DNA from: a virus
Lineage: Duplodnaviria; Caudoviricetes
Strand: one strand, 5' to 3'
Virus record (IMG/VR): IMGVR_UViG_3300033075_001536
Span: 1 to 64,000 of that record
Length of the DNA: 64,000 nt
Every line of letters starts with the position of its first letter. Within the stretch, counting starts at the first letter, position 1. Shown piece after piece: positions 1 through 61,041 of the stretch. The notes under the pieces are model-generated. The model was given only the letters and a program-made list of their open reading frames with translations. It was not told the DNA's origin and did not search any database. The translations under genes and the position numbers were made by a program.

Positions 1-207
1 GAATTCCCAGAACTAGATTCTAAAATCTCAAATCTTAAAACTTCTAACCTCCATTTCAAGAAGCTCTACGAAGAATATAATACTTTAGATAAAGAAATTT
101 TTAAGATGGAAACATCAGAAGTATTTACAGACAAGACACTTGAAGATTTAAAGAAGAAAAGAGTTTTCTTAAAAGATCAACTTCTAACTATTTTAAAAGA
201 GAATTAA
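1..207 (+). CDS. YdcH/DUF465-family protein, 5'-truncated by window edge
   Basis: Frame 1 reads EFPELDSKISNLKTSNLHFKKLYEEYNTLDKEI...LKKKRVFLKDQLLTILKEN*, the FPE..I..LK....F..L...LD.EI...KK.R..LKD pattern of YdcH. Confidence 0.7.
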   Translation, partial: EFPELDSKISNLKTSNLHFKKLYEEYNTLDKEIFKMETSEVFTDKTLEDLKKKRVFLKDQLLTILKEN

Positions 208-632
208 TATTCTTTGAATATAGGATTATTCTTTATAGTTTTTCCATGTGCCTCTCTAACAATAGCCCCAATACATTCGGTATTATACATAGATTTTAAA
301 TTATATGTTAATAAGAAATATCCAAATTGTTTACAGACTTCACCACACCGATCAATAAATTCAAAATAATGATCTGATTCAACTAAATTTTTATAATCTT
401 CTTCCAATTTACCGGAGTCCCATCTTCTATACTTCGGGTTTAAAATTCCAATAAACATTTTATACTGATCCAATCCATTAGAATAGTTCTCCGATTTCAA
501 ATCAATCTTACATTGATATCCCTCATCTTCTAAAATATAAAAGAGGGATTCGATTTCTTCTTTAAGATTTCTAGCATTCTCCAACTCATCTTTAAATTTT
601 TTCAACTCATTCAAGATTTTAATATATCTCAT
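204..632 (-). CDS. YILEDEG-family phage protein with N-terminal CTS-like motif
   Basis: MRYIKILNE start; EIESLFYILEDEGY and YFEFIDR motifs shared with paralogs in the window. Confidence 0.75.
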   Translation of the reverse strand: MRYIKILNELKKFKDELENARNLKEEIESLFYILEDEGYQCKIDLKSENYSNGLDQYKMFIGILNPKYRRWDSGKLEEDYKNLVESDHYFEFIDRCGEVCKQFGYFLLTYNLKSMYNTECIGAIVREAHGKTIKNNPIFKEY

Positions 633-647
633 TTAATATATATTAAA
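632..647. promoter_or_regulatory. Bidirectional AATATATA putative late promoter
   Basis: Perfect palindrome TTTAATATATATTAAA between divergent starts at 632 and 650. Confidence 0.55.
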
Positions 648-649
648 GA

Positions 650-1255
650 ATGAAACAAGATAAGGATAAAGAACTCTTAAAATCTCTTAAAGATCTAGAA
701 CACAAAATGGGTCAGCTCAAAAGATACTCAGAATTTGTGAACAGGAAATCTATGTTTCCATCTGACGAAGAACTAAAGAAAGATAGATCCAAACTAACTA
801 AACTTTCTTCTTCTGTGGAAGAATTAATTTATTCTATGACGGATAATGGTTGGTTATATTACAAAGATTACGAACTTGTAAATTTTTACTCAGAAATAAC
901 CTTCGAAAAAGAATTTCCTTTCTCAGAAGCTTCTCAAGATTTAGTGGATGAGATTTCTTCAGAAATGGATGAGGTAGTTTCACACTTCTCAGAAAGAAAG
1001 TTTAACTGTCACTACAAACTAAAGTTTAATGGTAAAGACCAATCTGAGAACGATCCCCAAACACACAAGAATGATATCTACACATTCAAAGGACCAGTCC
1101 CAAGATTAGATAAATATAATAAACCATACACAGGTCGTCTCTTCTATCCTCAGGAAAGATTTGAAGAACTTAGATCCGGTGGTTGGACTCTTAGGATGAA
1201 ATCCTACGATTCTTCAGAAAATTTCATTGCACAAATTATTTTACTTTACATATGA
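650..1255 (+). CDS. Hypothetical phage protein
   Basis: 201-aa ORF; internal MGQLKRYSEF resembles the CTS-like motif. Confidence 0.7.
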   Translation: MKQDKDKELLKSLKDLEHKMGQLKRYSEFVNRKSMFPSDEELKKDRSKLTKLSSSVEELIYSMTDNGWLYYKDYELVNFYSEITFEKEFPFSEASQDLVDEISSEMDEVVSHFSERKFNCHYKLKFNGKDQSENDPQTHKNDIYTFKGPVPRLDKYNKPYTGRLFYPQERFEELRSGGWTLRMKSYDSSENFIAQIILLYI

Positions 1256-2523
1256 AGATAGAAAGATATACTGAATTTATTAATGAATCTCTGAATTTAG
1301 ACTGGGAAGAAATAAGACATATTCTAGATGATATGGGATCTGGTGAATTTACTCAAGATATATCTAAGTATTATACTTGGGCCAGAGAAACTCACGGACT
1401 CCCACTTGGGTTCTATGTTTGTGGTTATATTAACCAGATTCAAGATCCCTCAGAAGAAGATATTGAAACAGCTAAGGATAGATTGGAAGATATTGGACTC
1501 ACCCTAGTTTCACTAGACATTCCATCTACCTCATCTGACGGTATTAAATTTCTTTTAGTAGAAACCGATTTACTTAATAATCTAAAATCATCGGGTTATA
1601 AGTTCCTAGATGATTTAGATTGGAAAGATTGGCACATGAATAAAGTATTTCAAGATACAAGAATTTTTAGGCAATATACTGGGGTTAATGATATTCCTGA
1701 AAAAGTTATAGACACAAAACACTCCAGACAAAAAATTGGAGATTCTGAAATATCAATTGTTTGGGGACCAATGGGTCCATTTGAAGATGAGGGTCTTGAT
1801 CAATATGAATTCTATGATGGTGATGATACTTACAAAATATATTCCAAAGTTCAGGCAGAGTGTTTTAATATACATCTCCAACAAAGGGAAAGAGGTTCTC
1901 AAGAAGTATTTAAGAAATTAAGATCTTTTGAATCATTTTCTCAAGAAGAAAAGTCACTAGGTAGAGTTCTCATTCTCCATGGTTACGAAGCAACCGCTTC
2001 TGACTGTTTTTATCCTTGGTTAAAAGAAGAATTAGAAAATATTGGGTATGAAGTAGAACTTCCTGAACTTCCATCTCCATTTAATCCAAAAATCGCTGAC
2101 CAAGTTAAATATATACAAGAAAACTATCCACTCCAGAAAGACATAATAATTGCTCATTCTCTAGGTGGTTGTGTCGCTTTAAAATATTTGGAACAATCAG
2201 AAATGAAAACTAAATCACTTTACCTATTATCTTCTTTCTTAAACTTTAATTTTTATAAAGGAGATGAAGACATTGAAAATCTTAAACATGTTTTTTCTTG
2301 GAAATTTGATTTCCATAATATTAAATCAAAAGTAGAAGATATTTTCGTTCTCTATCCCTCAACTGATACCTCAGTTACGTTTAAACAAGCTTCCGAAATG
2401 GCTGATGCTTTTAACACAGAGGTTATTACTATGGAGTGCTCAGATGATCATTTTTGTGGGGAACAAGAGCCACAGATTTTAAATTTCATAAAAAATAAAG
2501 AAGGCTTGAATGAGGAAGCTTAA
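1252..2523 (+). CDS. Two-part protein: unknown N-terminal region plus C-terminal RBBP9/YdeN-type alpha/beta hydrolase
   Basis: LILHGY, FYPWLK, AHSLGG nucleophile elbow, DHF; N-terminus MKIERYTEFINE. Confidence 0.8.
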   Translation: MKIERYTEFINESLNLDWEEIRHILDDMGSGEFTQDISKYYTWARETHGLPLGFYVCGYINQIQDPSEEDIETAKDRLEDIGLTLVSLDIPSTSSDGIKFLLVETDLLNNLKSSGYKFLDDLDWKDWHMNKVFQDTRIFRQYTGVNDIPEKVIDTKHSRQKIGDSEISIVWGPMGPFEDEGLDQYEFYDGDDTYKIYSKVQAECFNIHLQQRERGSQEVFKKLRSFESFSQEEKSLGRVLILHGYEATASDCFYPWLKEELENIGYEVELPELPSPFNPKIADQVKYIQENYPLQKDIIIAHSLGGCVALKYLEQSEMKTKSLYLLSSFLNFNFYKGDEDIENLKHVFSWKFDFHNIKSKVEDIFVLYPSTDTSVTFKQASEMADAFNTEVITMECSDDHFCGEQEPQILNFIKNKEGLNEEA

Positions 2524-4900
2524 ACAATATAATAATTTTTATAATCTTCTTCTAGAATCACACCTTCTAGTAGATGATGAGTTTAAAAAAATAATTATTT
2601 CCACTAGAACAAAATCTATTGTTTCTAATAATTTATTTAGATTATTCAATAAGGATATTCAAACCAATGTCAATTATCTCTCACTTGGTAAAGCCAACGA
2701 TGAGGTTTTATTCACCAACGACAAACAAGTATCTCGTATAGTTCAATCTGGATCAGATCCATTTGAAAAATCTAGAAACAATTCAAAAGTAGGTCGTCTA
2801 GTTCGTCAGCTTTTGGTAGCCAATAATATAGATGTTACTGACAAACAAATTGAGGATTTTGTTAATCTATATAAGATAGAATGGGATGCTCTAAACTCAC
2901 CTGGTAATTTTGAAATAGTAGAAGGTGATAAAATTAAATTCTGGTATCTAGAATCTAACTACGAGAAAGGAAATGGCTCACTTTCTGGATCTTGCATGAG
3001 ATATCCAAAGTGTCAGGACTTCTTTGGTATTTATACAGATAATCCAAATGTTTGTAAATTAGTTATCCTAAAATCAGAGGATGGTACAAAATTACTTGGT
3101 AGAGCTCTTCTCTGGAAAATATGTGATGGTCAAGCTGATTACTACCTAGATAGAACTTACACACTAAGAGATTATGACGAGGGTAAAATGTTAAATTGGG
3201 TTCTATCTCAATTTCCAGACAAAAAGATTATATCCTACAAGAACAACGATTCTCTCTCAGGAGTAACTGTCCTTCTAGATAATTGTACTTTTGATAAGTA
3301 TCCATACATGGATTCTCTTAATTATCTAAATGTTTCAGAAAAGAAACTAATGGCTTCTCTCTCAAACAAAGAAGACCTATTCTTCCAGTTTGGAGATACA
3401 GGAGGACAATACACACCAATCAATCAAGTGTACTCAAAATTATATAAAAAGTATCTTAAACAAAAAGAATCTGCTTACGTACAATCTCTCTCTGATTATG
3501 TTCCAACTTCAGATTGCTATCTAGAGGTAAGATCTCTTAAAAGAAATCCGGTCTGGGTTTATAAAAAAGATGCTGTCTATTCAGAACTCTACAAAGGATA
3601 TATCTTTAAAAAGGATGCACTCGAAACAGATAAATGGGGAGTAGTTCCTCGCTGGAGTTTAGTGGAAGTTACTATTAATGATTTAGGAGGGAAAGAAAAA
3701 ATACCTCTCGAAGCATTTGGTGATAAATATTGTAGAGCATTTACCTCAGAGTACCACCACAAATTCATTAGGACAAAAGAAGCTTTCAAAGATATCTTAG
3801 GAACTTATTTTACAAATAAATCAAAATCTAAATTACTTTCTTCTCCAGATATTAATATCTGTGTCTTAAAAATGGCTAAGGTAAGTTCTTCTGGTTTGGT
3901 TAAATTAGGTTCTCCCGATATTCGTAAAAATTTCTTTCAAGTTGGAATGTTTAAAGAGGAACTTAACTCACAAACTGTTCAAGTTTGGGGACTTGAAGGA
4001 ACCGATCTTCCACTTGCTGTAGAATATTCTCATGTTCCAGGAATCTACTCTCCTCTATATTTAGCTATTTCTTTTGGTTTAGAGATTATCACTCAAGAAG
4101 AATTATACTTAACTCTAAGGAACTTTGCATTTGATGCTCTTGAAAGATTCCCAATTTATAACCTAGATAGAATAAACGATAAAACATCTAAAGAGACACA
4201 TTTAAATACGGTTCATACTCTTCTTGACTGGGATAAACAAATGACCCGCAGAAGTGGATACTATGTTCAGAATAAAGACTTTTTAAGTATTTCTCATATC
4301 TCAGAAAAAGAAAGGTTTAAAATTTTTAACAAAACAATTCAAGAAGGTTGGTCAGATTCAAGAATCTTTAAAAAATGGATCATGAATTTTAGATCTCAAA
4401 TGCTTGATCCAAAGAATTCGGAAATATTAAATAGAGTTCTTGGATACTTTAACAGAAGAAGACCATTCGGAGTCAATAGAAGATACAATTCACTTGAACT
4501 CACTGACTGGTTTGAATCTAACTTAGATAAGATATTATGTTATTTTTATATCTGGTATCTTACATTCGATAGATACAGCGCATCTAAAATGGCTGCTGAA
4601 TACTTTGGAGACTTTACTGAGAATACCAAATCTTGGTTAAATGAATTTACCTTTACCGAAAATTCACTTTCCTTTGGAGATGATCTTTATATGTTTGTAG
4701 AAGAAGGAAATTATGATTCTAAAGATGGCACTTCTGGTAAAGTATCTAGATGGATTCGTCAACAATTATTGAAAAGTAGTACCGCTAATGATGATTATAA
4801 TGATCAAACAGATGAAGGCTCATATACCTATCCGAATATTCTTCCTGCTCTTGAAAAATTTAAATCAGAAAATATACCACCTCTTTTAAAGAAAGGATAA
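2510..4900 (+). CDS. Large SCM-family phage protein (paralog 1), putative virion-internal
   Basis: KVGRLVR, GSCMRY, GRALLW, YLDRTY, YPYMDS. Confidence 0.75.
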   Translation: MRKLKQYNNFYNLLLESHLLVDDEFKKIIISTRTKSIVSNNLFRLFNKDIQTNVNYLSLGKANDEVLFTNDKQVSRIVQSGSDPFEKSRNNSKVGRLVRQLLVANNIDVTDKQIEDFVNLYKIEWDALNSPGNFEIVEGDKIKFWYLESNYEKGNGSLSGSCMRYPKCQDFFGIYTDNPNVCKLVILKSEDGTKLLGRALLWKICDGQADYYLDRTYTLRDYDEGKMLNWVLSQFPDKKIISYKNNDSLSGVTVLLDNCTFDKYPYMDSLNYLNVSEKKLMASLSNKEDLFFQFGDTGGQYTPINQVYSKLYKKYLKQKESAYVQSLSDYVPTSDCYLEVRSLKRNPVWVYKKDAVYSELYKGYIFKKDALETDKWGVVPRWSLVEVTINDLGGKEKIPLEAFGDKYCRAFTSEYHHKFIRTKEAFKDILGTYFTNKSKSKLLSSPDINICVLKMAKVSSSGLVKLGSPDIRKNFFQVGMFKEELNSQTVQVWGLEGTDLPLAVEYSHVPGIYSPLYLAISFGLEIITQEELYLTLRNFAFDALERFPIYNLDRINDKTSKETHLNTVHTLLDWDKQMTRRSGYYVQNKDFLSISHISEKERFKIFNKTIQEGWSDSRIFKKWIMNFRSQMLDPKNSEILNRVLGYFNRRRPFGVNRRYNSLELTDWFESNLDKILCYFYIWYLTFDRYSASKMAAEYFGDFTENTKSWLNEFTFTENSLSFGDDLYMFVEEGNYDSKDGTSGKVSRWIRQQLLKSSTANDDYNDQTDEGSYTYPNILPALEKFKSENIPPLLKKG

Positions 4901-4934: not shown

Positions 4935-7541
4935 ATGTCAAAGATTAAGAAAGTATCAGAAGATTTAGACCTTATCTTAGAATCTATTCTCCAAATGGAT
5001 AGAAAGTTTAGACAAGTTATAGAGATATTAGTGAACAACTACGATCCAATAGCTACCAATTTATATAGATTATTCAATAAGGATATTAAAACAAATATTA
5101 ACTTCTTAAATCTTGGTCCTGCAAATGATGAGATATCCTTTGTAAATGATACACAAGTTGCTAGAATTCTAGATGCTGGTGGTGATCCATTTTCAAAATC
5201 GAGAAATGTTCAAAAAGTCGGAAGAGCGGTTCGTCAAGTTCTAACCTCTAACGGAATAGAAGTAACGGACAAACAAATTGAAGAGTTTGTAAATAGATAT
5301 AAAACAGAGTGGGACAAGCTTAATGCTCCAATTAATATAGATTTTGTCACAGGAAATGAGATTAAAAAGTGGTACTTGGATGTCAATTATGTTTCTGGAT
5401 CTGGTCAACTAAATAATTCTTGTATGAGATATCCAGCCACTCAGAACTATCTTGAAATCTATACCAGAAATCCGGAACAATGTCAACTGGTTATATTAAA
5501 GACTCCAGACAACACAAAACTTCTTGGTCGAGCTCTTCTCTGGAAATGCTCAGAAGATTCAACAACAGTAGCAAGAACTCCTCTTAAAGTAGATTATTAT
5601 TTAGATAGAATATACACTGTTTTTGACCATGATAGAGATAAGATTAAAGAATTTGTTAAAAACAAATTAAAGGATAAAAATGTTATTTGTCATATTGATG
5701 TCGTAAATGACTTTTCAAAACTTAATAGAATTAAAGTATCTCTTGAGAATGTAGAATTTGCGCAATACCCATACATAGATTCTCTTTACAATGTATATCC
5801 AAATGAGAAATTTATATCTGCTGTAGATGATGCTCGTTCACTAGTCTACCAGTGTCGTCAAACAAACGGTAATAAAATAGTTAGAAACTGGGTTCATTCT
5901 GTTAATCTAAACAGATATTTCCCAGCATCTGAAGTTATTATGGTAGATTCATTAAGATCGTACATGCCTTTATCTGAATGTCTTCAGGACTATCAAGGTA
6001 GATGGATTTATCGCGGAGATGCTATCCAATCCGAAATATACGGGGTAATTACCCGTAGAAATGCTCAACAAACTCGTTGGGGTTGGGTTCCGAACAATGA
6101 GTTGGTGACAGTCTATACCAACACTTCATCCACTGTTGCAATGCCTAGAAGACTTCTAAACATCGAATTCTTTGAATGTAGAAATAGAAATGGTTCTTCA
6201 TCTTTCGGAACAGAAGAAGCGTCTTTCTTGGATGTTACTGGTAAAAGATATCTTTTAGCTGACAAGAGACATTTAATTGCAAGTTCTGCTAACTGGGAAG
6301 GTTTAGTTAAGGCTGTTCGTATTATGTCAGAGGATGTTAAACCTCTTGGAAATGTTCATCCATCAAGTTATGCTCCAGGAGTTACTTACCAGTTATATTC
6401 TCTTCCAGACTCAACTCTTCCAATTGCTATTAAATATAACTATCCACCAACAGAAAGGTTAGTAGCAACATATTCATTCTCAACACCTGTTTCACCAACA
6501 GCTTCGGCTCCCTCAACAACTTCAGGAGTTATAGCTCTCGAAACAGATGTAAATGCATTTAGATTGAGAAAAAGGAGAGCAGCTCGTGGAACAAGATCAA
6601 CAGACATGTGGATCCTAAAGAAAGGATATGCTCTAGATTACTTCTTAAACCACCCAATCACAGATAAAGTTATTTCAGATACACTTACTCTAATAAAGGT
6701 TGCTGGTAACCAAGAAACAACTTCTGCTAAAATGCAATTGCTAGCTGATACCAACAACTACTTATATTCCCAATCAGCTCCTTACCAAAGGGCTCTTAAA
6801 GAAGCGGTTTTAAAATCTTCTACTAAAGAATCTCTTTACAAAGAAGTCAATAAGAATCTAGAGAACTTCTGGAGAACAAGGGATTCTAATATAAGAACTT
6901 ATATGTCAAATATGGTTCAACATTTGTCTGCTCAAAGAGGACAAACCGCTCCAACTCTTCTTGACCAAATGTTAGAAGATTTTAATGGTCGTGGTCCATT
7001 TGAAACAGAAAAGCCTTTGGAACTAAACGAGTTCAAGCAGTTTCTTTTAGAAGCTAGAGAAATGTTTATCTGTCAAATTTATATTTGGAGTCTAACTAGA
7101 AATAGAGTTCTAGCCGGAAGAACAGCAGCCAGACATTACGGGTTTTCTGATAGAAGAAGTGCTGCTTACCTATCATCTTGGAGCTACAATAGATACTCCG
7201 GTCAAGTTGGAGAAAGAGTTTTCCAAGTATGTGAATCTTTCTTCCCAAATTCTAGATTTCCAGTTGGAAATCCAATAGCTTCTATGAAGTGTGAAGCTGC
7301 TTATACATCTACTGATCTTTTAACTATCGATAAAAAGACAAATACTTATAAAGAACTTCTCAAAGCTTGGGATATGTTTGTTAAAGAAAACTTTTCAACT
7401 GTATTTCCTCCTCTAACGGTTCCACCAATTCCAGGTGAAAGACTTTCTAAACAAAGAGTTCGTAAATTTGGAGTTAAAAAGGAAGAGCCTCTTTCTCCAG
7501 AAGAAAGAGTTCACAAATACAATGAATTAAGTGATGATTAA
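4935..7541 (+). CDS. Large SCM-family phage protein (paralog 2)
   Basis: N-terminal third clearly similar to 2510..4900 (RLFNKDI, NSCMRYP, GRALLWK, YLDRIY, YPYIDS); AATATATA at 4920-4927. Confidence 0.75.
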   Translation: MSKIKKVSEDLDLILESILQMDRKFRQVIEILVNNYDPIATNLYRLFNKDIKTNINFLNLGPANDEISFVNDTQVARILDAGGDPFSKSRNVQKVGRAVRQVLTSNGIEVTDKQIEEFVNRYKTEWDKLNAPINIDFVTGNEIKKWYLDVNYVSGSGQLNNSCMRYPATQNYLEIYTRNPEQCQLVILKTPDNTKLLGRALLWKCSEDSTTVARTPLKVDYYLDRIYTVFDHDRDKIKEFVKNKLKDKNVICHIDVVNDFSKLNRIKVSLENVEFAQYPYIDSLYNVYPNEKFISAVDDARSLVYQCRQTNGNKIVRNWVHSVNLNRYFPASEVIMVDSLRSYMPLSECLQDYQGRWIYRGDAIQSEIYGVITRRNAQQTRWGWVPNNELVTVYTNTSSTVAMPRRLLNIEFFECRNRNGSSSFGTEEASFLDVTGKRYLLADKRHLIASSANWEGLVKAVRIMSEDVKPLGNVHPSSYAPGVTYQLYSLPDSTLPIAIKYNYPPTERLVATYSFSTPVSPTASAPSTTSGVIALETDVNAFRLRKRRAARGTRSTDMWILKKGYALDYFLNHPITDKVISDTLTLIKVAGNQETTSAKMQLLADTNNYLYSQSAPYQRALKEAVLKSSTKESLYKEVNKNLENFWRTRDSNIRTYMSNMVQHLSAQRGQTAPTLLDQMLEDFNGRGPFETEKPLELNEFKQFLLEAREMFICQIYIWSLTRNRVLAGRTAARHYGFSDRRSAAYLSSWSYNRYSGQVGERVFQVCESFFPNSRFPVGNPIASMKCEAAYTSTDLLTIDKKTNTYKELLKAWDMFVKENFSTVFPPLTVPPIPGERLSKQRVRKFGVKKEEPLSPEERVHKYNELSDD

Positions 7542-12889: not shown

Positions 12890-13360
12890 GTGGAAAATTT
12901 AAAAACAAACGAAGAATTTCTAGATATCTTCAAAACTCCTAAACGGAAAATTGTTATCTACCCTGCTCAAATTCTTAGAACAAGATGTAAAGATGTTTCT
13001 GAATATCCGAAAGAACTAGTTGAAGATATGTGGAAAGTTTTAGCTCGTGGTGGGGTTGGTCTTGCTGCTCCACAGGTTGGAGAAGACTTAAATGTATTCT
13101 TAATTAGTTATGCCTTTAAAAGAAAAGTAGTTCTTAATCCTAAAATATTAAAATATGGTACAGAGACAAGTTCATATAGAGAAGGATGTCTAAGTATTCC
13201 AGGAAGAATGGTTAAAGTCTGGAGACCTAATTCAATAGATGTGGAATTTAGAGATGAGAAATTTGAATTAAAGAAAGCCACCATCTCAGGATTTATGGCT
13301 CGTATATTTCAACACGAATTTGATCACTTACAAGGAAAATTAATTATTGATTATGCTTAA
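12890..13360 (+). CDS. def: Peptide deformylase
   Basis: GVGLAAPQVG, EGCLSIP, QHEFDHLQG. Confidence 0.95.
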   Translation: MENLKTNEEFLDIFKTPKRKIVIYPAQILRTRCKDVSEYPKELVEDMWKVLARGGVGLAAPQVGEDLNVFLISYAFKRKVVLNPKILKYGTETSSYREGCLSIPGRMVKVWRPNSIDVEFRDEKFELKKATISGFMARIFQHEFDHLQGKLIIDYA

Positions 13361-14754: not shown

Positions 14755-15103
14755 TATAGAATTCCTATGTTATTCACCCACCTTTTCAGGACCAAAGAAA
14801 TTTGATTTGGATGAGTTTAATGCAATAAATATTAAAAACTATTTACACGCGTATTCGCTAGATGGCTTCTATGATGGGTTTAATAAAATTGGATTTGATG
14901 TTTCTAAAGGTATTGTGGACTATTGTGTTGAATTTAATTGTTATCATTTGGTCCAACCTATTTTAGAGGATGTAAAAAAACATGTTCTTGGTCATCAAAT
15001 GGATTGGAGAACCAATCAAAAGATAATGAATGTGGAGAGGCAAGATATTCGAGATAGCTTTAACTCTCTTTACAGAGATATACAACTATCTAATATTTTA
15101 TAA
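14567..15103 (+). CDS. Hypothetical protein with RDxxL tail
   Basis: Ends LYRDIQLSNIL. Confidence 0.7.
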   Translation: MDLEVLIPDNSEKWIIQSGYLFVNKYAKIPISFIKENGKVVIFLDNKIRKEVIKLMNHLIQNNIEFLCYSPTFSGPKKFDLDEFNAINIKNYLHAYSLDGFYDGFNKIGFDVSKGIVDYCVEFNCYHLVQPILEDVKKHVLGHQMDWRTNQKIMNVERQDIRDSFNSLYRDIQLSNIL

Positions 15104-15559
15104 TTTAAGAAAATTACTACCCCTTAAATCTTGTATAATCACTTTATATCTAAGAGGTTTACCATCTTTATGGAATTTATTATTTTGTTTCCATTTAGGA
15201 TCGCCTACCACACAAATTCGAAAATCTGGATACCCAGTCATTACACCTAGTGTAATATCTATCACTGGTGGATTTGTTCCGTTAATTAAAGTATCTTCGA
15301 CCAACTCTTGAATTCTACCCATATACTCTTCAATAAGTTCATAAAAATCTTCACCTGGATAATATATTGAAATAATCTTATCACTAGTTTGAGTTTGAAT
15401 ATTGATATCAATAGCTGTTATCATAAGTCGATGTAATTCACCAGGACCATGCACAGTTATTTTATATCCCTCATCTTGTATGATATAAGATAATTCTCTA
15501 ATCTCTTCTACGAGATTTTTAACTTCTTCCGATTCTGAAAAGTCTTTAAATTTTTTCAT
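15098..15559 (-). CDS. YILEDEG-family protein
   Basis: MKKFKDFSE; EIRELSYIIQDEGY; AATATATA at 15565-15572 (minus). Confidence 0.75.
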   Translation of the reverse strand: MKKFKDFSESEEVKNLVEEIRELSYIIQDEGYKITVHGPGELHRLMITAIDINIQTQTSDKIISIYYPGEDFYELIEEYMGRIQELVEDTLINGTNPPVIDITLGVMTGYPDFRICVVGDPKWKQNNKFHKDGKPLRYKVIIQDLRGSNFLKL

Positions 15560-20630: not shown

Positions 20631-21033
20631 TGACCAAATCAACAATTTTTTTATAATAAATACCAACAGACATTCCTTCTAAATTATTTTGAATAAAAAC
20701 ATAATATCCTAATTCATCTAATCGATTTCTAACTTCAATTAGTTCATCAAATATTTTAATATATTCATCTGTTAATTTTTGTGTGTTTCCATTATATCCA
20801 CCATTTTTAAATTTTAAAATAAGTCCATATCCTTGTCTATCTTTACTAGCATGATATACCCTCATAATAGTATAATTATCCACTGATCTCTTCACAAAAT
20901 TCTTCTCATCACACAAATCCATAACACCATTACATATTCCACGAATTTCTTCTTCGTCTTTAACAACTTGACTAGTCCAAGATTTAAATTCATCCACACT
21001 AACATCTTCAAAAATTGGTTTTAAGTGTTTCAT
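20611..21033 (-). CDS. Single-domain relative of the modules in 18870..20630
   Basis: MKHLKPIFE; IFDELIEVRNRLDELG; AATATATA 21039-21046. Confidence 0.7.
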   Translation of the reverse strand: MKHLKPIFEDVSVDEFKSWTSQVVKDEEEIRGICNGVMDLCDEKNFVKRSVDNYTIMRVYHASKDRQGYGLILKFKNGGYNGNTQKLTDEYIKIFDELIEVRNRLDELGYYVFIQNNLEGMSVGIYYKKIVDLVNAKKNS

Positions 21034-36724: not shown

Positions 36725-37040
36725 ATGATTGAAAAATATTTAAAATTTTTTGAAAAGTTAGGAGATGGTGAGTTTTATAAATTCTCTAAAACTATTAATG
36801 AGTATAGATATATTTTAGAGGATGAAGGATTTGAGGTTGAAATTATAGACTCATCGAGCTACTAACTTCAATTCGGATGAACTTTTTGAATTTATGGATA
36901 GAATCCAAGGAGATCTTCCTGATTATGAAATTGTTGCTGATCCACCACTGCCAGCTTTTGAAAACGAAATATTTGGATCTCTCTATGTAGATAGTATGAC
37001 TAATAAAAAGTATATTAATGTTTTCTTTAGAAAAAAATAG
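36725..37040 (+). pseudogene. Frameshifted YILEDEG-family gene
   Basis: MIEKYLKFFE...RYILEDEGFEVEIIDSSSY* continues in another frame as NFNSDELFEFMDRIQ...FFRKK*. Confidence 0.65.
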
Positions 37041-38677: not shown

Positions 38678-39166
38678 ATGCGATATATCAAAATGTTTGA
38701 ATCTTTCTCGAAAAAATTTACCGAAAGAATAAGTAATCTTGAAAAAGAGGCTATGGACGATCTAATGGATTATCTCTATGATATAAAAGACGAATTTCCA
38801 GATGTGGATATATCCAAGGACACTTGGGCGAACAATAAGTGCTTTCAAATTGAAATTAAATTTAAAGTATCTGATTTGGAAAAATTTAAAAATCTTTTTC
38901 ACGAAGGCATATTTGATAGAATAAAAGACGATCACATAGGAACCGAAATAATATATAGCGTCAGTTTAGAATGGTATAGCAATGAGTCAAATAGTTGGGG
39001 AAATTCTTTTATGTCTAGTAAGTCTATAAAATTATCAAATCCACTTGATGATTATCCAAACTATTCTATGGATATAAATTCACTATTAAATGCAATGGAT
39101 AAAAATAAAGTGATAGAGACAAAATCATCAACCCCACTTTTCAATATTCAAATACATATTATCTAA
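38678..39166 (+). CDS. Hypothetical protein, paralog of 22782..23228
   Basis: MRYIKMFES; FHEGIFDRIK; AATATATA 38666-38673. Confidence 0.7.
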   Translation: MRYIKMFESFSKKFTERISNLEKEAMDDLMDYLYDIKDEFPDVDISKDTWANNKCFQIEIKFKVSDLEKFKNLFHEGIFDRIKDDHIGTEIIYSVSLEWYSNESNSWGNSFMSSKSIKLSNPLDDYPNYSMDINSLLNAMDKNKVIETKSSTPLFNIQIHII

Positions 39167-42371: not shown

Positions 42372-42742
42372 TCAGTAAATTTGATGAATATGTTTCTCCA
42401 GAAAAAATAATTTCAGAAATAAAAGAAATTTCTTATATTTTGGAAGATGAAGGATTCAATATAAATTATACAGTATCAAAAAATATTTATATAGGATATC
42501 TTTTTATAGTGATATCTAGATATCATAGAATAAATTACAAATTCCAAAAAAATCTCATGGAGTCTGAGTATTGGTTGGAATATATAGACAGATTAAAAGA
42601 AATTTTGGATAGATTTGGATTTTATCCAAGATTACCATGTTTATCGAGATTACACTTCGAAAACCGTCCCATAAATATAACTATTGTGATAGAAAAGTTT
42701 ACTCCAAGACAAAAAAGAAAAATGTTAAATAAAAACAAATGA
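42368..42742 (+). CDS. YILEDEG-family protein
   Basis: MISKFDE; EIKEISYILEDEGF; LEYIDRLKEI. Confidence 0.75.
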   Translation: MISKFDEYVSPEKIISEIKEISYILEDEGFNINYTVSKNIYIGYLFIVISRYHRINYKFQKNLMESEYWLEYIDRLKEILDRFGFYPRLPCLSRLHFENRPINITIVIEKFTPRQKRKMLNKNK

Positions 42743-43092
42743 TTTGTAAATTTAACGAATTAAATCTTGAGAACGAAATAAAAGAAATATCTTATATCAT
42801 AGATGATGATTTTGGATATTTAAAAATTTCAAAAGCATATGGTAAGATATACATAACCATTTTGAACAACAGCTCTCCACCATCTAACAGCGCTTGGAAC
42901 CGGAAACCAAAAGTATCTAAATCACTAATTGATAGTGATCAGTATATTGAATTTTATGATAGGTTGAAGGAAATATTCTTTAAATTTAATTACAATTTAT
43001 ATCATCTAAAAGATCATAAGAATATTATCGTCCTTTCACCAATGACTGATATGCAAGTAAAGAGAAAATTAAAAAAGAATTCCAAATTATAG
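42739..43092 (+). CDS. YILEDEG-family protein, tandem paralog
   Basis: MICKFNE; EIKEISYIIDDD; IEFYDRLKEI. Confidence 0.75.
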   Translation: MICKFNELNLENEIKEISYIIDDDFGYLKISKAYGKIYITILNNSSPPSNSAWNRKPKVSKSLIDSDQYIEFYDRLKEIFFKFNYNLYHLKDHKNIIVLSPMTDMQVKRKLKKNSKL

Positions 43093-46574: not shown

Positions 46575-48212
46575 ATGGATATTTTAAGATTCAAACAGTT
46601 TGAGAAAAAACTTTCTATTTCCGAATTATCTGAACCAGCACCTTCTAATTTTAACGGAAACGGAAATAAAAGAGGTGATGTTTTGATAAAGAAAGTAGAA
46701 GATGGCGATCCTTTAATTATTGGGCCTGTTGGTAATCGAAAATCTGTTATTGTGGATGAGATTAGAGACCCAGAAGGTGTTGTATTGGATAATTTGGATG
46801 GCATGGATGGTGTAAAAGATAATGAGGATAGATACGATCCTAGCCTAGCAACTAACTTTTTTAAAAATGGAAGAGGACACTATATAAATACATTTATTGG
46901 GCAACAGGCCGATGGGACAGATTGTGAATTCACATTAAATAATATTGAAAAAACAACCGATTTCGGATCCTCTGGTCCTGGAAGAAATATAGATAAATGT
47001 GAAGTAATACAAGCTATTTTTATACATCTAAACAGAGTTAATCCACAGATAGCTTTATCTGTTAAAAACGCTGTTCAAATATTTCAACAATTTGTTTTGG
47101 ATACACCAAATTTAACCGACTTCATAAAAACTAATATGGAAATAACTCCAGATATGATTAATGATCTGGATAGTGATTGGTTATATACTTTTTCAGAAAT
47201 TCCTGGTGAGATTGAACATTTATTAAGAGATCATAAAAAGAGCCAATATGTTATTATACATAACAAGTATAATCGACCATCTCCATATAGATCAATAAAA
47301 AATAAAGTTAAGCAGTTTTTACCAGGTACAGAAATTTCAAAATTTTACCCAGGTGATTTAATTGTTGTTTCTGATCATAGACTAGTTATAGATGTTGTGA
47401 ATGGAAATAGAAATGGTGGATTTGGATATTTAATGGGTAAAATAGAAGCAACCCAAAATATAAACGAATTGATTTCTCTTTTAAATAACCTATTTAATGA
47501 AAAGGTAATGTGCTCATTGTCATTAAAGAAATTAAAAGCTGGGCTAGATTATAGTGTTATTATTAATAATGATAGTATTATTGGTAATAATATTCCAGAT
47601 CCAGTTAATTTTGAATTTAATGGGTTTGAAATAAGTAGAGTTCCGGAAAGAGGAAGGTCTTCAAAAGTTTCAACAATATCTAGATATCGTGGTGTTCCAA
47701 GGTATAGAATAATGATATTTAGAGGTGATAAGGGAGGAGATCTAAATGGTGAAGTAGAAGGATCAACTTCTAGACATGGTAAAATATCTTTACAGATTAT
47801 AAATAAGATAATTAGAAGACACTTTCAAGACTTTGGATTACAAACGCAAGATTTTGAATTTGTTAGAAGGAGAGTTGTTTTAAATGATTTAAATAATAAT
47901 CAATTATTAAATCAAATAAACTCTCTTATTGGTGATGTTGCAGAGCTTGTAAATCATGGATTTAATATAGATAGAAATTTATCTGGAAGAGATGATATAT
48001 CTAATAACAGAGATGGACTAATTTCTAAATTACAGTCTTTGGAAATGATTAAATTATTAGCAGATATATCAATGGAAAACAATGAGTGTTTTGATTTAAT
48101 TATTAATGATATTTTTAAATATGCGATGTCAATACAAGTTTGGCATGATCAGAACACCCCACCAAATCGCCAAGGAAATTTATTAACTCCTAAATATTTT
48201 AGGACAGTTTAA
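46575..48212 (+). CDS. Hypothetical protein, possible PD-(D/E)XK nuclease fold
   Basis: MDILRFKQFE; FYPGDLIV and SLSLKK spaced like P.D...SLK nuclease motifs. Confidence 0.45.
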   Translation: MDILRFKQFEKKLSISELSEPAPSNFNGNGNKRGDVLIKKVEDGDPLIIGPVGNRKSVIVDEIRDPEGVVLDNLDGMDGVKDNEDRYDPSLATNFFKNGRGHYINTFIGQQADGTDCEFTLNNIEKTTDFGSSGPGRNIDKCEVIQAIFIHLNRVNPQIALSVKNAVQIFQQFVLDTPNLTDFIKTNMEITPDMINDLDSDWLYTFSEIPGEIEHLLRDHKKSQYVIIHNKYNRPSPYRSIKNKVKQFLPGTEISKFYPGDLIVVSDHRLVIDVVNGNRNGGFGYLMGKIEATQNINELISLLNNLFNEKVMCSLSLKKLKAGLDYSVIINNDSIIGNNIPDPVNFEFNGFEISRVPERGRSSKVSTISRYRGVPRYRIMIFRGDKGGDLNGEVEGSTSRHGKISLQIINKIIRRHFQDFGLQTQDFEFVRRRVVLNDLNNNQLLNQINSLIGDVAELVNHGFNIDRNLSGRDDISNNRDGLISKLQSLEMIKLLADISMENNECFDLIINDIFKYAMSIQVWHDQNTPPNRQGNLLTPKYFRTV

Positions 48213-48664
48213 AGATTTCTATCTCTATTTATCTGTTCAGACCTCACAATAGCAGTGTGTCCATAATATCCATTATGACAGTTATAAGCAGTAAATTGCA
48301 ATAATCCTTCAGATGTTTCTATGTTTACAAACATAGTTTCTCTTTCTTCAGGACCATCAGTTATCTCATCTAATCTACTAACATTTAAACACTCATCTAC
48401 AATTTTAACACCTATTAATTTTGACCCTATAAAAGATTTATATTCATCATTGGTGAAAAAATATCCAAATTTTTCACAACAGTTTTGATCATTTTCAATC
48501 AAAAGATATATGGTTTGTTTATTGGTGTGAATAGCAAATCCATCATAAGAAGACATACTACCTCTCAAATCTATCTCATCTCTTCCAAACAGCTCCTCTA
48601 TTTCTTCAATAATTTCATCAGAAGAGTTCTCAAATAGTTTAAATTTCTTGATAATTTTAGACAT
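48209..48664 (-). CDS. Conserved-type phage protein (QxCCE / HNGYY)
   Basis: QNCCE and HNGYYG motifs; KFKLFEN N-terminus. Confidence 0.7.
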   Translation of the reverse strand: MSKIIKKFKLFENSSDEIIEEIEELFGRDEIDLRGSMSSYDGFAIHTNKQTIYLLIENDQNCCEKFGYFFTNDEYKSFIGSKLIGVKIVDECLNVSRLDEITDGPEERETMFVNIETSEGLLQFTAYNCHNGYYGHTAIVRSEQINRDRNL

Positions 48665-49670: not shown

Positions 49671-49901
49671 ATGGAACATTATATCGCTTTTTATATAACA
49701 TTTATATTTTTTACATTTATTATTTTATTTGATTTATCACCAATTAATATTGTAAAATTTATTTGTAGAGATAAAAATACCACTTTTGGCATTTTGACTT
49801 TTGGTATCCATCAGTATAGAAAATATAAAGAGAAGAAACTTTCTGAAAGAAACACTTTACAATATATTAGGAATAAAAAATTAGAAAAAATTTTAAAATG
49901 A
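49671..49901 (+). CDS. Small membrane protein with RNKKL tail
   Basis: N-terminal TM; ends YIRNKKLEKILK. Confidence 0.65.
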   Translation: MEHYIAFYITFIFFTFIILFDLSPINIVKFICRDKNTTFGILTFGIHQYRKYKEKKLSERNTLQYIRNKKLEKILK

Positions 49902-50137
49902 AAGAAAATAATACAATTATTGCTATAAAAAATAGTATAGATTTTTATATGGATAGTGGAAAAAAGATTTTATATTATTATAAATATGATAATTTTAAAG
50001 TTATAAGGACATTTTTTGGAACAGATGAAATATCGATTTTTAACCCGATTTTAAATGAAAAAATATTTGTAGATAGTAAAGATTTTATAACCTTATTCGA
50101 ATATAGAGATCAAAAATTAGAAAATATTCTAAAATGA
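49898..50137 (+). CDS. Small protein with RDQKL tail
   Basis: Ends EYRDQKLENILK. Confidence 0.65.
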   Translation: MKENNTIIAIKNSIDFYMDSGKKILYYYKYDNFKVIRTFFGTDEISIFNPILNEKIFVDSKDFITLFEYRDQKLENILK

Positions 50138-53393: not shown

Positions 53394-53741
53394 TTAAAAT
53401 ATTTTTTCAGACTTTATCTCTATATCAACTAAATGGTTTTTTAAAAATTTTTCACGATTATGCCCTCCAATTGGCATTCCAGTTTTTGGACTAATAAATT
53501 GCCAACCATACTTACCATCTAAGTCTAAAAATTCTCTAACTCTATAATTCCCAGAGTGGATTGGATTAAATTTTAAAGCTTTATCATTTGATAAAATCAT
53601 TACCCTGTGTATTGGTCTGCGAACATATACCTCTAGTATACGAGTGGTTACTTTAGGATTTTTTTGACCAGACTTTCTTAATTCTCTTAGATGAGCTTTA
53701 TTTCCCTCACTACCATACCTAAAAATATCAATATGTTTCAT
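53394..53741 (-). CDS. Hypothetical basic protein (likely start MKHIDIF)
   Basis: TAACTTTG element at 53748-53755 (minus) supports the ATG at 53741. Confidence 0.65.
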   Translation of the reverse strand: MKHIDIFRYGSEGNKAHLRELRKSGQKNPKVTTRILEVYVRRPIHRVMILSNDKALKFNPIHSGNYRVREFLDLDGKYGWQFISPKTGMPIGGHNREKFLKNHLVDIEIKSEKIF

Positions 53742-53892: not shown

Positions 53893-54156
53893 ATGAAGAA
53901 AAATCTCAAAGAAATGTTAAGTCACAGAGAGAAGATAGCAGCAATATGCCTTCTAATGGGCTCGTTTTTCCTTCCATTTGGATACGATGCCCTTTTTGCT
54001 ATTATCATGAAATTAACCAATTCATATTGGATTACGGATTTTATTTTCTATTGTATTTCGGCAGCTTTCTTTGGGTTCTATTTTTACTTATCTGGATATA
54101 ATCCATTTAGTCGAGTTTATTTAAAGATCAGGGGAATCTTTTTTTCTAAGTTTTAG
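53893..54156 (+). CDS. Small two-TM membrane protein
   Basis: Two hydrophobic segments, FFLPFGYD; TACATTTG at 53788-53795. Confidence 0.65.
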   Translation: MKKNLKEMLSHREKIAAICLLMGSFFLPFGYDALFAIIMKLTNSYWITDFIFYCISAAFFGFYFYLSGYNPFSRVYLKIRGIFFSKF

Positions 54157-54918
54157 AATTTCTTTATATGTTGGATTTCCACTATCAAATTTGTTCGATT
54201 TTATAATATTTTCACTAGACCACATTGGTATAATATTTTTATAATGGCTTAAAATTTTTAACTCTTCCTCTGTTTTAGCAATAGATATTGGTATGGTGTG
54301 ATCTAGGTGCCAAAGGCTTCTATTTTCCCAATTCATTCCTTCTACAAAATTATCTTCGATATGTTTTTTAAACTCTTGCATTGAACATCCTAATATATCT
54401 TTCGATTTAAAATCTTTTTCCATACCTATTAGTTTTAAATATTTTCTTATTCGACTACTATATCTCAATTTCAAGTTCCAAATAGGGTCTTTTTCGAGGA
54501 CTTCTCTTTTGTATATCTTTCTTGTTGCATTTATTTTCCTTCTATTATTCTTTGAATATTCTTTGCTGTATCTTTTCTTTTCATCTGGAGAAAGTAGATA
54601 TTTCATTTTTTGATTATTGGATATTTTTTCCTTGTTTTTTATATTATATTTTTTTAGATATTCTTTTTTACATAATTTACAAATTCTTTTTTGATGTATA
54701 AACTCCTCTATTTTCTTTTCTTTATCACACGAACTACAAATTTTTTTATCTGGTTTAATACCCTTTTTAATAGTAAATTCTTTGTTTTTGTTCCCTCTTC
54801 GATATTCCCTTAAATATTTTATACGACACATTTTACACTCATTTCTTATCTTTCCTGATCCTCTTTTACCAAACTCGGTAGTGTCCTTTTCAATTTTACA
54901 AACTTGACAAATTTTCAT
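54121..54918 (-). mobile_element. Free-standing HNH-type homing endonuclease with Zn-finger repeats
   Basis: Repeated C..C..EK...EF...C..C; LGCS, GMNWEN, WHLDHTIP, HYKN..PMW..EN..KSNK. Confidence 0.75.
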
Positions 54919-57830: not shown

Positions 57831-58487
57831 ATGAAACCATTGTTTGATATCAATGATTATAAGAATATAAAATGTTTAGAATTTGAATGTGAATTTTGTG
57901 GAAAGTCATTTGCTCCTTTAAGGAGAAATGCAATACAATCTATTCGTAAAGTTCAAAATGTTCAATTCTGTTCTACTATTTGTAGAATAAATGCTCGTGT
58001 AGAAAAAATAGAAATACCTTGTTCTAATTGTAATAAATTGGTGTATAGAACAAGCTCACACTTTAAAAAAAGCAAAAATAAACGGGCTTTTTGCTCAAAA
58101 TCTTGTTCAGCAATTTATAATAATACCCATAAAGCCTATGGAACAAGACGAAGTAAATTAGAAGCATGGATAGAAAAGAATTTAAAAGATAGATATAATT
58201 TTGAAATAATATTTAACGGAAAAGAAGAAATTAATAGCGAGTTAGATATTTTTATACCGAGTTTAAAATTGGCATTTGAATTAAGCGGAATTTTTCATTA
58301 CGAGCCAATTTATGGAATTGAAAAATTAAATATGGTAAAAAATAATGATAATAGAAAATTTCAAGCTTGTTTAGAAAAAGGAATAAAATTGTGTATAATT
58401 GATACTTCAAATAGTAAAAAATTTAAACCAGAAAGAGATAAAAAATATTTAAATATTATAGAAAAAATAATAGACTCAAAAAATTAA
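57831..58487 (+). mobile_element. Free-standing endonuclease: treble-clef Zn repeats plus PD-(D/E)XK (Vsr/DUF559-like) domain
   Basis: CEFC..FCS..C and CSNC..FCSKSC; SKLE, ELDIFIPSLKLAFELSG.FHY. Confidence 0.7.
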
Positions 58488-59232: not shown

Positions 59233-59793
59233 TTACTCTGTTGTTTCGATGGAAAATTCCTCATCTTCTTCACCAAAATCCTTATCCAATTCTAATTTTA
59301 GTTCAATTAATTTATCTTCGTTTAGGTCTTTAATTTTAATTGTTTTAGAAACTTGTCCAATTAATTCGTTGTTTTTGTCTTGATCATATTTCTTAAATTT
59401 AACATAACAATTTTCTATATCCTTCCAAGAAAAATCTTTTTCTTTATCTTCTGGTATAGCATCTTTTAGTTGAATCATGACAAATAGATTATAGAAATAT
59501 TTAGCATCAGTAAATTTAAAAGTTACAGAATCATATTGTTTAGAATATTTAGAAATTTCTGAGGATTCTAGTCTTAGATTTAAATCCTTAAAATTCATCT
59601 TATCACCTTTTTCTTTTTTTTCACCTTTAGCCTGAGCATCTGCCAATGTTTCAACTTTCTCAGGTTCTCCTTCGGATTCACCAAAGTAAGAATCTATTTT
59701 TGTTTTTATTTGTTGCAAGGCAGTGGATACATAGGTCTCTGGAGTATCTTGGAAATTCTCTAAAACAAATTGTTTATATTTTACGATCTTCAT
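59233..59793 (-). CDS. Acidic protein with CTS-like N-terminus
   Basis: MKIVKYKQFVLE. Confidence 0.75.
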   Translation of the reverse strand: MKIVKYKQFVLENFQDTPETYVSTALQQIKTKIDSYFGESEGEPEKVETLADAQAKGEKKEKGDKMNFKDLNLRLESSEISKYSKQYDSVTFKFTDAKYFYNLFVMIQLKDAIPEDKEKDFSWKDIENCYVKFKKYDQDKNNELIGQVSKTIKIKDLNEDKLIELKLELDKDFGEEDEEFSIETTE

Positions 59794-59833
59794 ATTTTTT
59801 ATATATTAAAATTCATAAATCAATATATAAGTA

Positions 59834-60268
59834 ATGTTAAAATATGATAAATTTATAATTGAGAAGTTATGGAAGGACATTGAAGAGCTTGGATACATTC
59901 TATCAGATGAAAATATCCACCACACTATTGTTCAATATCATGCTGAATTTGATTGGAGAATTAAAAGTGGTATAGGAGAAGTTTTAAAAATGGGTCGTAT
60001 TATTAGGCGTTTACTTGGATCAGAATTATTTACAAATTTGGAAATTTCTAATGTAATAAGGAAAATAAATAAAAACCAAAATTATTTAGGAACAATAATT
60101 ATACACCCACAAAATACAGGATTTTCATACATCACATCTAAATGGTTCAGAAATATTGACGATGATCCAAACTATCTAGAATACTTGGATAGAGTGGAGG
60201 AGACCATCCAAGGGTATGGATTCAAACTAGAAATAGATAATAAGGTATTTCTCAATATTTTTAAATAA
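59834..60268 (+). CDS. YILEDEG-family protein
   Basis: MLKYDKFIIE; DIEELGYILSDEN; YLEYLDRVEE. Confidence 0.75.
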   Translation: MLKYDKFIIEKLWKDIEELGYILSDENIHHTIVQYHAEFDWRIKSGIGEVLKMGRIIRRLLGSELFTNLEISNVIRKINKNQNYLGTIIIHPQNTGFSYITSKWFRNIDDDPNYLEYLDRVEETIQGYGFKLEIDNKVFLNIFK

Positions 60269-60279
60269 TATATAAGATC

Positions 60280-61041
60280 ATGAAATATTTAAAACTATTT
60301 GAGGGATTTTCCAAAGGTCCAGAATTTAAAGTTACAAAATTAGAACTGTCTCCAGATAAAGAAGGATTTGTGGAAGCTACCATTGAATGGAGTACAGAAA
60401 AAAGAATTCTAGAAATGGAAGATTATTATTTCCTTGCTTATATTCAAAAAGAAAATGAGAATTTAAAAGCATATATAAGTGGTCTAAAAGGAGAATCTCC
60501 AGAAATGATATTGGGTGACTTACAAGAAATTGGGGTTTCTTTAAAACCAATTATGCAAAAATATGTGGATGAAAAAATGACTATGGAAGAATTCGAAAAA
60601 TTAAATTGGGATCCTTCTCAAGTTTCGGATGCTGATGTTAAAGGTATTTTTGATGATGAAGATGGTGATGTTGGATTATTAGAAGAAGGTTGGAAAAGTT
60701 GGGTCGCTGGTGCTTTATTATTTTTAACATCTTGTGATAGTGTTACTATTAAGGACAAAACAGGAAAAGAACTTCCTGTACATTATGTTGATGAAAAATA
60801 TACCACCACCGGAACAATTATTGAACTAACAAAAATGCCAATGAAAAATGCCACTCAATATGAAATTACTGTAAAAGACGATAGTACTGGTAATAACATA
60901 TATATAGAAAAACACGCAATGAATCCATTTCCGGATGATGAAACTCCAGCAAATTGGTGGATGTCTAATCTAAAGGAAGGATCTAGAGTAAAAATAGTTT
61001 GTAGAGATGATTGTAAAGTTTATCTACTTGATAAAAAATAA
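60280..61041 (+). CDS. Two-part protein with an internal lipobox-like segment
   Basis: MKYLKLFE; internal LLEEGWKSWVAGALLFLTSC. Confidence 0.7.
   Translation: MKYLKLFEGFSKGPEFKVTKLELSPDKEGFVEATIEWSTEKRILEMEDYYFLAYIQKENENLKAYISGLKGESPEMILGDLQEIGVSLKPIMQKYVDEKMTMEEFEKLNWDPSQVSDADVKGIFDDEDGDVGLLEEGWKSWVAGALLFLTSCDSVTIKDKTGKELPVHYVDEKYTTTGTIIELTKMPMKNATQYEITVKDDSTGNNIYIEKHAMNPFPDDETPANWWMSNLKEGSRVKIVCRDDCKVYLLDKK

Follow-up and report, generated by a model that had tools for sequence, protein, structure and literature searches.

A recurrent N-terminal motif on many proteins of huge T4-type phages: a candidate capsid-targeting tag

Microcompartment encapsulation peptides and encapsulin cargo-loading peptides are short amphipathic peptides which, with a flexible linker, dock unrelated enzymes into a shell. 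In phage T4, a capsid-targeting sequence (CTS) of about 10 amino acids (aa) is found at the N-termini of the otherwise unrelated internal proteins IPI, IPII and IPIII, and gp24 and Alt have short propeptides. IPIII begins with MKTYQEFIAE, IPI with MKTFKEF and gp22 with MLKEQLIAEA (read from NC_000866). Targeting of IPIII depends on residues 4 and 7 and its processing on residues 8 and 10; an Asp at position 10 blocks processing (PMC9026906). In the phiKZ-like giant phages, a gp21-related protease cuts after Glu in 19 head proteins of phiKZ and 8 of SPN3US, of about 50; the propeptides are thought to be targeting sequences, and the inner head proteins form paralog families (PMC5694885). The present work concerns a short N-terminal motif, the tag, carried by many proteins encoded in the first 64 kb (the window) of a 170,678-bp viral contig with 29.6% GC (IMG/VR record IMGVR_UViG_3300033075_001536; G000 below). 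The reading somewhat favored here is that huge T4-type phages of one clade, with predicted Bacteroidota hosts, use the motif as a portable N-terminal sorting signal, most likely one that acts like the T4 CTS.

The contig's split type II topoisomerase shares 69-70% identity with its counterparts in LR756502.1 (642 kb) and LR745206.1 (635 kb), two sequences from uncultured huge phages. Both are assigned to the ‘Mahaphage’ clade, whose hosts are predicted to be Bacteroidetes (PMC7162821). The end of the contig cuts a capsid gene of the T4 gp23 family (Gp23 match). There are 87 open reading frames (ORFs) in the window and 234 on the contig. The genomes used for comparison were LR756502 (920 ORFs), LR745206 (one 50-kb sample), LR756504, T4, Lak-B5 and Tenacibaculum phage PTm1; the last has a Bacteroidota host and 29.7% GC and is the closest cultured relative by capsid protein.

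A seven-column matrix of the tag was trained on ORFs outside the window and tested on those inside, and the procedure was then reversed. Tags scoring at least 8 bits are termed strong, and a wider count includes scores of at least 6 bits or the long form described below. Strong tags were present at 12 of 80 window N-termini (15%), versus 1.1% of shuffled N-termini, 0.25% of random internal positions and none of 263 positions that follow an internal Met. In the reverse test, 22 of 138 N-termini outside the window matched, versus 0.5%. By the wider count 29 of the 87 window ORFs pass, which bears out an earlier note, made from the letters of the window, that about 30 proteins have a common N-terminal motif; all 16 N-termini quoted in that note were found at the first ATG of their ORFs. 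Approximately four of the 29 are probably chance matches (the topoisomerase ORF at 7913, and ORFs at 25705, 37917 and 58518), and three or four degenerate cases were missed by the scoring (42368, 42739, 13601 and 33501). Tagged ORFs number 25-29 of 87 in the window, and 61-91 of 234 on the contig. An artefact of base composition was considered and rejected, on the strength of the internal and shuffled controls and the near-absence of the motif in T4, Lak-B5 and the AT-rich PTm1.

The consensus of the short tag, from 165 strong cases, is M1 K2 [HYK]3 [LI]4 K5 [KLR]6 [FY]7 [NE]8 [ESN]9 [FS]10; in the window it can also be written M-K-[YH]-[LI]-K-x-[FY]-[NE]-E. Position 4 is L, I, Y or F in 96% of these cases, position 7 is F or Y in 94%, and Phe alone makes up residue 7 in 60%. 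Conservation stops after residue 10, where a segment rich in S, D, E and N begins. The tag is not followed by a hydrophobic run such as the core of 10 or more residues that comes after the basic N-region of Sec, Tat or lipoprotein signal peptides. A long form, [KR][YFW]xx[FY][ILVFT]xE, in simpler notation Y-x-x-F-[IV]-x-E in the window, is present at 9 G000 N-termini versus 0.16 expected, and only hybrids such as MKYLKSYKIFEN bridge the short and long forms. The carriers are mostly acidic (median pI 5.3).

The tag extends to the relatives of the contig. Strong tags are found in 106 of the 920 ORFs of LR756502, versus 9 of 3197 internal controls, in 9 of 95 ORFs of the LR745206 sample, and in 2 of 54 ORFs of the more distant LR756504. 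The matrix gave 0 of 78 in T4, one non-canonical match among 58 in Lak-B5, and 4 matches among 282 in PTm1, none of them a canonical tag. In the genomes compared, the tag is specific to the huge-phage clade. Most tagged ORFs have no orthologs in LR756502, hence turnover is fast. A literature search with tag strings gave no paper, and no published account of such a tag was found.

Selection on the tag is at the protein level and not at the DNA level, judging by codon usage and ortholog alignments. Synonymous codon use in the tag is that of the genome, the hydrophobic column being encoded by TTA, ATT, ATA, TAT and CTA, and tag codons are slightly more A/T-rich than codons elsewhere. In orthologs of 35-58% identity the letters of the tag differ and the pattern is kept. 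A DNA-level signal was therefore rejected, since codons vary while residue classes stay.

Important is the comparison with T4. Both the tag and the CTS are peptides of about 10 aa on otherwise unrelated proteins. They start with M-K, have a hydrophobic or aromatic residue at position 4 and another at position 7, which in the tag are the best-conserved hydrophobic residues, and end in Glu, two or three positions behind a hydrophobic residue; the register M1 K2 x [LIY]4 x x [FY]7 agrees with both IPIII and IPI. The long form aligns with the T4 sequence at Y, F, I/V and E. When tags are defined only by the columns up to Phe, Glu and Asp at +1/+2 after Phe are in a ratio of 100:13 (about 8:1), compared with 79:80 for internal matches and a background in which Asp exceeds Glu. 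The pattern F/I/L-x-E fits about 57% of tags. There are also differences from T4: the dominant tag here is rich in lysine and has its Glu at position 8 or 9. Carriers number 3-5 in T4, whereas here 170 kb holds 60-90 tagged ORFs and a genome over 100. phiKZ, 201phi2-1 and SPN3US are similar in having many head proteins that are processed after Glu and paralog families. However, they are of a different lineage, with S, A or G at P3, propeptides mostly longer than 100 residues and no common 9-residue tag; the tag here has only 9-12 aa and a hydrophobic or basic residue at P3. The encapsulation peptides differ as well, as they show no sequence or evolutionary relation to the tag and are not known to be removed by a maturation protease, and the only shell here is the capsid.

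A further likeness to T4 is the head module, with genes of the gp20, gp21 and gp23 families. In LR756502 these follow the T4 order: the portal gene, which two tagged ORFs immediately precede, is followed by a 699-aa S77-like protease (phrog_207) and a capsid gene resembling gp23. Portal, protease-scaffold and capsid genes were found in LR756502, LR745206 and LR756504. The LR756502 protease (LR756502.1 225272-227371; L024:5272-7371) is fused to a scaffold-like repeat region at residues 289-442, which consists of eleven tandem repeats with an exact 14-residue period; ten read YSEY[IL]AE[NSH]LDxNIx and the first has diverged. An extra copy of the motif is at residue 261. Ten to eleven tandem YSEY[IL]AE repeats are kept in the protease-scaffold proteins of LR745206 and LR756504 (L064:5547-7670 and, on the minus strand, L065:2343-4637). 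The T4 motif likewise recurs in a scaffold, as QLIAEA at the N-terminus of gp22; the corresponding repeats in the relatives here read YSEYIAEN.

The pattern [YFW]xx[FY][ILVFT]xE occurs 11 times in the LR756502 protease-scaffold protein, where 0.29 is expected, out of 74 internal matches in the proteome; no other LR756502 protein has more than two internal copies. In G000 and LR756502, a profile built only from 33 of the relatives' repeats hits N-termini at 6-11 times the rate of internal blocks. PTm1 also has a fused protease-scaffold protein, with different repeats, and gave no match to the profile at 18 or above, the top threshold. The protease-scaffold protein has hydrophobic-x-Glu sites more densely than 99% of the proteome, and the protease N-terminus, MKPVLIVEN, parallels LLIE of T4 gp21. 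We infer from these sequences that the scaffold repeats would form a self-associating core and protease cutting sites, and that the tags imitate them. A search of Protein Data Bank (PDB) sequences with a relative's capsid protein gave no match, and neither did a search for Terminase_6C in LR756502.

The upstream sequences bear on when the tagged proteins are made. The commonest upstream word is AATATATA, present at 256 of 1204 ORFs (28-fold enrichment), and the observation in the earlier note that it precedes many tagged genes is upheld by a 4.4-fold enrichment at tagged ORFs (p 5e-15). In 42% of tagged ORFs this promoter lies 4-7 nucleotides (nt) upstream of the start, and 58% have no adjacent promoter; most tagged ORFs are within operons. 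It is also found 19-29 nt upstream of the portal, protease, capsid, peptidase and large tail-like ORFs, and the sheath gene comes behind two tagged ORFs. A second promoter-like class, TATATTTGTA, precedes about 78 ORFs and fits the Bacteroidetes TAnnTTTG element. This host-type element is three times rarer at tagged ORFs (p 0.012). With AATATATA enriched and the host-type element depleted, the tagged proteins therefore appear to be made together with the head proteins and not from host-type promoters. The possibility that the tag marks early genes was rejected because of this promoter association.

Both promoter classes are found throughout the window and in G000 and LR756502, for example upstream of window ORFs 25905-26120 and 53394-53741. 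AATATATA is phage-specific and TATATTTGTA of the Bacteroidetes type, which suggests a host-polymerase early class and a phage-directed class. ATATATA ends 4-7 nt upstream of the ATG in 71 G000 ORFs, and AATATATA is at this distance at, e.g., 204-632, 15098-15559, 28296-29891 and 60280-61041, a spacing implying that mRNAs of tagged genes may be leaderless or nearly so. Structural genes with AATATATA have leaders of about 20-28 nt. No Shine-Dalgarno sequences were found before the ORF starts of the contig. Several ORFs that resemble GIY-YIG/zinc-finger endonucleases, in small paralog families, also lie behind AATATATA (window 21932-22801, 54121-54918 and 57831-58487; G000 169468-170328), and one of them sits between the capsid gene and its neighbors.

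The interpretation given in the earlier note is partly supported: the register of the key residues, the Glu preference, the head module, the promoter in common with head genes and the motif repeated in the relatives' scaffold are each consistent with a T4-like role as targeting signal and propeptide. If the tag does act in the manner of the T4 CTS, the following sequence of events may be proposed. The tag would be a short amphipathic peptide in which lysines flank the hydrophobic residues 4 and 7 and a Glu closes the motif, and it would dock its protein onto a prohead core built by the protease-scaffold protein, whose own 14-residue repeats bear the same Y-x-x-[YF]-[IL]-x-E as the tag. The gp21-family prohead protease would then cut behind the Glu, and the mature protein would be retained in the head until it enters the cell along with the DNA. 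Scaffold binding, cleavage, packaging and injection are steps inferred here. A large cargo capacity is plausible, given the roughly 50 head proteins and over 40 MDa of ejection proteins packed by SPN3US (PMC7411985).

Several points weigh against targeting to the capsid and should be considered together. The short tag (e.g., MKYLKKFNE) is not letter for letter like either the scaffold repeat or the T4 sequence, and the T4 sequence scores -2.9 bits on the short-tag matrix. The close likeness to T4 is one of the long-form subset and of the position pattern, not of the letters of the short tag. In about a third of tags (38%) the Glu comes directly after Phe, with Lys at P3, which misfits L/I-x-E. 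The protease-scaffold gene is off this contig, and the scaffold argument rests on relatives whose core proteins are 70-76% identical. Where the maturation cut of T4 gp23 aligns, the relative's capsid protein has LPG and no Glu, with VLE-N and INE-N upstream of that position. AATATATA is also found before the genes for DnaJ, a topoisomerase subunit and RnpA, and it may be a general phage promoter that is not strictly late. Of all ORFs, 11-26% are tagged, and among their products are enzymes with no obvious need for injection, such as a kinase-like ATPase and methyltransferases. Finally, no cultured member of the clade was found.

The tagged ORFs of the window are as follows (scores are from the tag matrix unless stated otherwise; domain X is described below).
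204-632 (-): 142 aa, MRYIKILNE, then domain X; 7.9 bits; ATATATA just upstream
1252-2523 (+): 423 aa, long-form MKIERYTEFINE, domain X, alpha/beta hydrolase (residues 239-394); scaffold-repeat profile 22.2
2510-4900 (+): 796 aa, MRKLKQYNNF, paralog of 4935-7541; 11.5 bits; no Pfam or PHROG match
4935-7541 (+): 868 aa, weakly tagged, MSKIKKVSE; 7.7 bits
10316-10531 (+): 71 aa, possible tag, MKYIQTNEEF; 8.3 bits
10506-10940 (+): 144 aa, MKHLRRINE, then domain X; 11.0 bits
13601-14209 (-): degenerate tag MIKRFKDMD; domain X at residues 34-67
15098-15559 (-): 153 aa, MKKFKDFSE, then domain X
20611-21033 (-): 140 aa, MKHLKPIFE, then domain X; 8.8 bits
22782-23228 (+): 148 aa, MNLLLFESF, paralog of 38678-39166; 9.0 bits
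28296-29891 (+): 531 aa, MKHLKYFKE; 11.2 bits; no Pfam or PHROG match
30559-30957 (+): 132 aa, MKKIKSFEE; 11.8 bits
30954-33479 (-): 841 aa, MQFIKLFED; paralogs 63106-64710 and G000 103077-105161
33501-34163 (-): possible tag behind a TTG start, (M)ENRNKIKKFLES
34147-34536 (-): 129 aa, MEIKLFENF, then domain X; 8.7 bits
36143-36715 (+): 190 aa, MKYLRKFNE, then domain X; 13.0 bits
36725-36865 (+): mini-ORF of 46 aa, MIEKYLKFFE, then the start of domain X
37052-37474 (+): 140 aa, long-form MIKKYFQFLKE; the LR756502 ortholog retains the tag
37478-37915 (+): 145 aa, MKYLTKFNE; 12.0 bits
38678-39166 (+): 162 aa, MRYIKMFES, then domain X; 11.4 bits
42368-43092 (+): two tandem domain-X ORFs (124 and 117 aa), degenerate tags MISKFDEY and MICKFNEL
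46575-48212 (+): 545 aa, MDILRFKQFE; 10.5 bits; phrog_1462, function unknown
48209-48664 (-): 151 aa, MSKIIKKFKLFEN, then DUF7448 (residues 25-138); 11.4 bits
55080-56348 (+): 422 aa, long-form MKLTGYNEFILEN; best match to the scaffold-repeat profile (24.7)
59233-59793 (-): 186 aa, long-form MKIVKYKQFVLEN, ortholog MKIRKFTEFINEE; long form and scaffold-repeat profile
59834-60268 (+): 144 aa, long-form MLKYDKFIIE, then domain X
60280-61041 (+): 253 aa, MKYLKLFEG; 11.7 bits
63106-64000 (-): 3' part of a 534-aa tagged ORF whose start, MVTKFHLFEN, is at 64710, past the window

The tag precedes an alpha/beta hydrolase, DUF7448, AAA_28, YoeB, NFACT-R, a SAM methyltransferase and domain X; of these, AAA_28 (from residue 15), YoeB (from 29) and NFACT-R (from 25) each have a full or nearly full profile match behind it. 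The YoeB toxin domain (residues 29-115, full profile) is behind the tag MRIKLFKDFNE at G000 123338-123691 (L003:19338-19691). The earlier note had called the carriers unrelated. This is right insofar as several folds carry the tag; however, about 12 tagged ORFs of the window have a common domain behind it and few have an identifiable fold. BLAST after trimming of 16 residues joins only 47 of the 234 ORFs, in 14 small families, and a single paralogous family as the whole explanation was rejected, because these families are small and the tag fronts various folds. The cargo list proposed in that note is overstated: the tag of the deformylase is doubtful, and the peptidases, nuclease-like and SCM proteins have no support in Pfam or PHROGs. 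The peptide deformylase ORF (12890-13360, plus strand) has a GTG start 4 nt past the topoisomerase stop, and its N-terminus, VENLKTNEEFLD, is not a canonical tag. Only the hydrolase (1252-2523) and DUF7448 (48209-48664) ORFs have a Pfam fold among the window's tagged ORFs, and the majority of tagged proteins match nothing in Pfam or PHROGs. The 841-aa protein matches only viral hypothetical and repeat-like clusters in the ESM Atlas. A J-domain link of the large tagged proteins to DnaJ, given by one BLAST cluster, has no Pfam support and was dropped.

Domain X is a previously undescribed domain of about 80 aa that directly follows the tag in 30-36 G000 carriers. Two strands separate its first helix, EIxxIxxxLxDEG[FY], from its second, xxDRLxE. 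It is found singly or in tandem (window 42368-43092, 15098-15559 and 36143-36865; three copies at G000 67222-68658), and the copies that are internal in tandem arrays have no tag. Out of 1.84 billion proteins, a profile of the domain picked up only 152 cluster representatives, which for the most part start with the tag; of 150 family representatives from metagenomes, 108 have it at 8 bits or more. A word-indexed homolog search with 15098-15559, which was also the query of a local iterated search, gave a single match, 90% identical, and tblastn with one family member against 50,697 phage records gave none. AlphaFold modeled residues 1-15 as a low-confidence coil and the rest as an alpha-beta-beta-alpha core (pLDDT about 80; a first run from paralogs only reached 62). 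A Foldseek search of this model against the PDB gave a best E of 0.35, and no fold was assigned. The tag is separable from the fold behind it, because internal domain-X copies lack it, folds start behind it, and the AlphaFold N-terminus is a coil.

Other genes of the window have no tag. These include Hsp70, DnaJ, GrpE, both topoisomerase subunits and an HD hydrolase, as well as the RNase P protein, an RNA ligase, a GIY-YIG endonuclease and the peptide deformylase. The Hsp70 system is complete in the window, with DnaK (852 bits; 61094-62992, minus strand), a full-length DnaJ (23218-24264, minus strand) and GrpE (25264-25704, minus strand). Several small ORFs (among them 24794-25003, 25705-25908 and 49671-50137) have a common C-terminal tail, KKLE(K/N)ILK at the stop codon, which abuts or overlaps the next start.

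The tag could instead be a signal for another machine, i.e., for degradation, at a set time, by an AAA+ protease of the host or the phage, a handle for the phage Hsp70/DnaJ/GrpE, or an address for an intracellular compartment. The phage does have its own Hsp70, DnaJ and GrpE, and the tag is a short N-terminal peptide of Met, basic and hydrophobic residues with a polar linker behind it. Hsp70-binding sites have a hydrophobic core with basic flanks, and ClpX N-terminal motifs start with Met followed by basic and hydrophobic residues. In addition, the number of carriers and the types of enzymes among them suit a role in the cytoplasm better than packaging. However, such a signal leaves unexplained the preference for Glu over Asp of about 8:1, the match to the scaffold repeats, the promoter shared with head genes, and the tagged ORFs beside portal and sheath genes, and no candidate receptor was found. 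It is considered unlikely, though it is the alternative to be taken most seriously. Less probable still is that the tag is inherited and without function, having originated with domain X and spread by recombination behind a promoter-plus-start cassette, as in the plastic regions of T4-type phages. About 30-36 of the G000 carriers do belong to the domain-X family, most of the metagenomic representatives of this family (108 of 150) are tagged, the promoter directly precedes 42% of tagged ORFs, and turnover is fast, with most tagged ORFs lacking orthologs in the relative. Descent of this type accounts for the spread of the tag but not for its maintenance: the other 58% have no adjacent promoter, codons are free where residue classes are kept, the pattern persists in orthologs of 35-58% identity, and internal domain-X repeats are without it.

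A third explanation, that the conserved start aids translation of leaderless or nearly leaderless mRNAs by an effect of the RNA or the nascent peptide, in a host group without Shine-Dalgarno use, is given very little credence. It fits the lack of Shine-Dalgarno sequences, the promoter element that ends 4-7 nt before the ATG at many tagged ORFs, and the slightly A/T-richer tag codons. Yet the conservation of residue classes extends through residues 7-9 and includes a specific Glu, most tagged ORFs are inside operons, and PTm1, with the same composition and host phylum, is without the motif; also, structural genes with AATATATA have leaders of about 20-28 nt and no tag. A targeting signal of the T4 type stays the reading with a slight preference here.

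In its fullest form this reading would have the 630-kb-class clade load and inject more than 100 proteins (10-25% of the proteome) by means of a nine-residue tag that mimics, or complements in charge, the 14-residue repeat of a protease-scaffold fusion, with about eleven docking and cleavage sites per scaffold molecule. The cargo would then include an antitoxin-less YoeB RNase, methyltransferases, hydrolases and the small domain-X proteins. This combined proposal is tentative, and the odds are judged to be against it as a whole. If the tag is a capsid-loading signal, the cargo would be by far the largest protein cargo known, and a ready-made proteome would be delivered with the DNA, changing the view of how huge phages take over the cell. 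A simple sequence rule would predict the virion cargo of uncultured metagenomic phages, and there would be a second, independent example of targeting of the T4 type, in which the visible partner motif of the scaffold could show how tags bind. If it is instead some other sorting or stability signal, it would still be an N-terminal address on the scale of a proteome in a virus.

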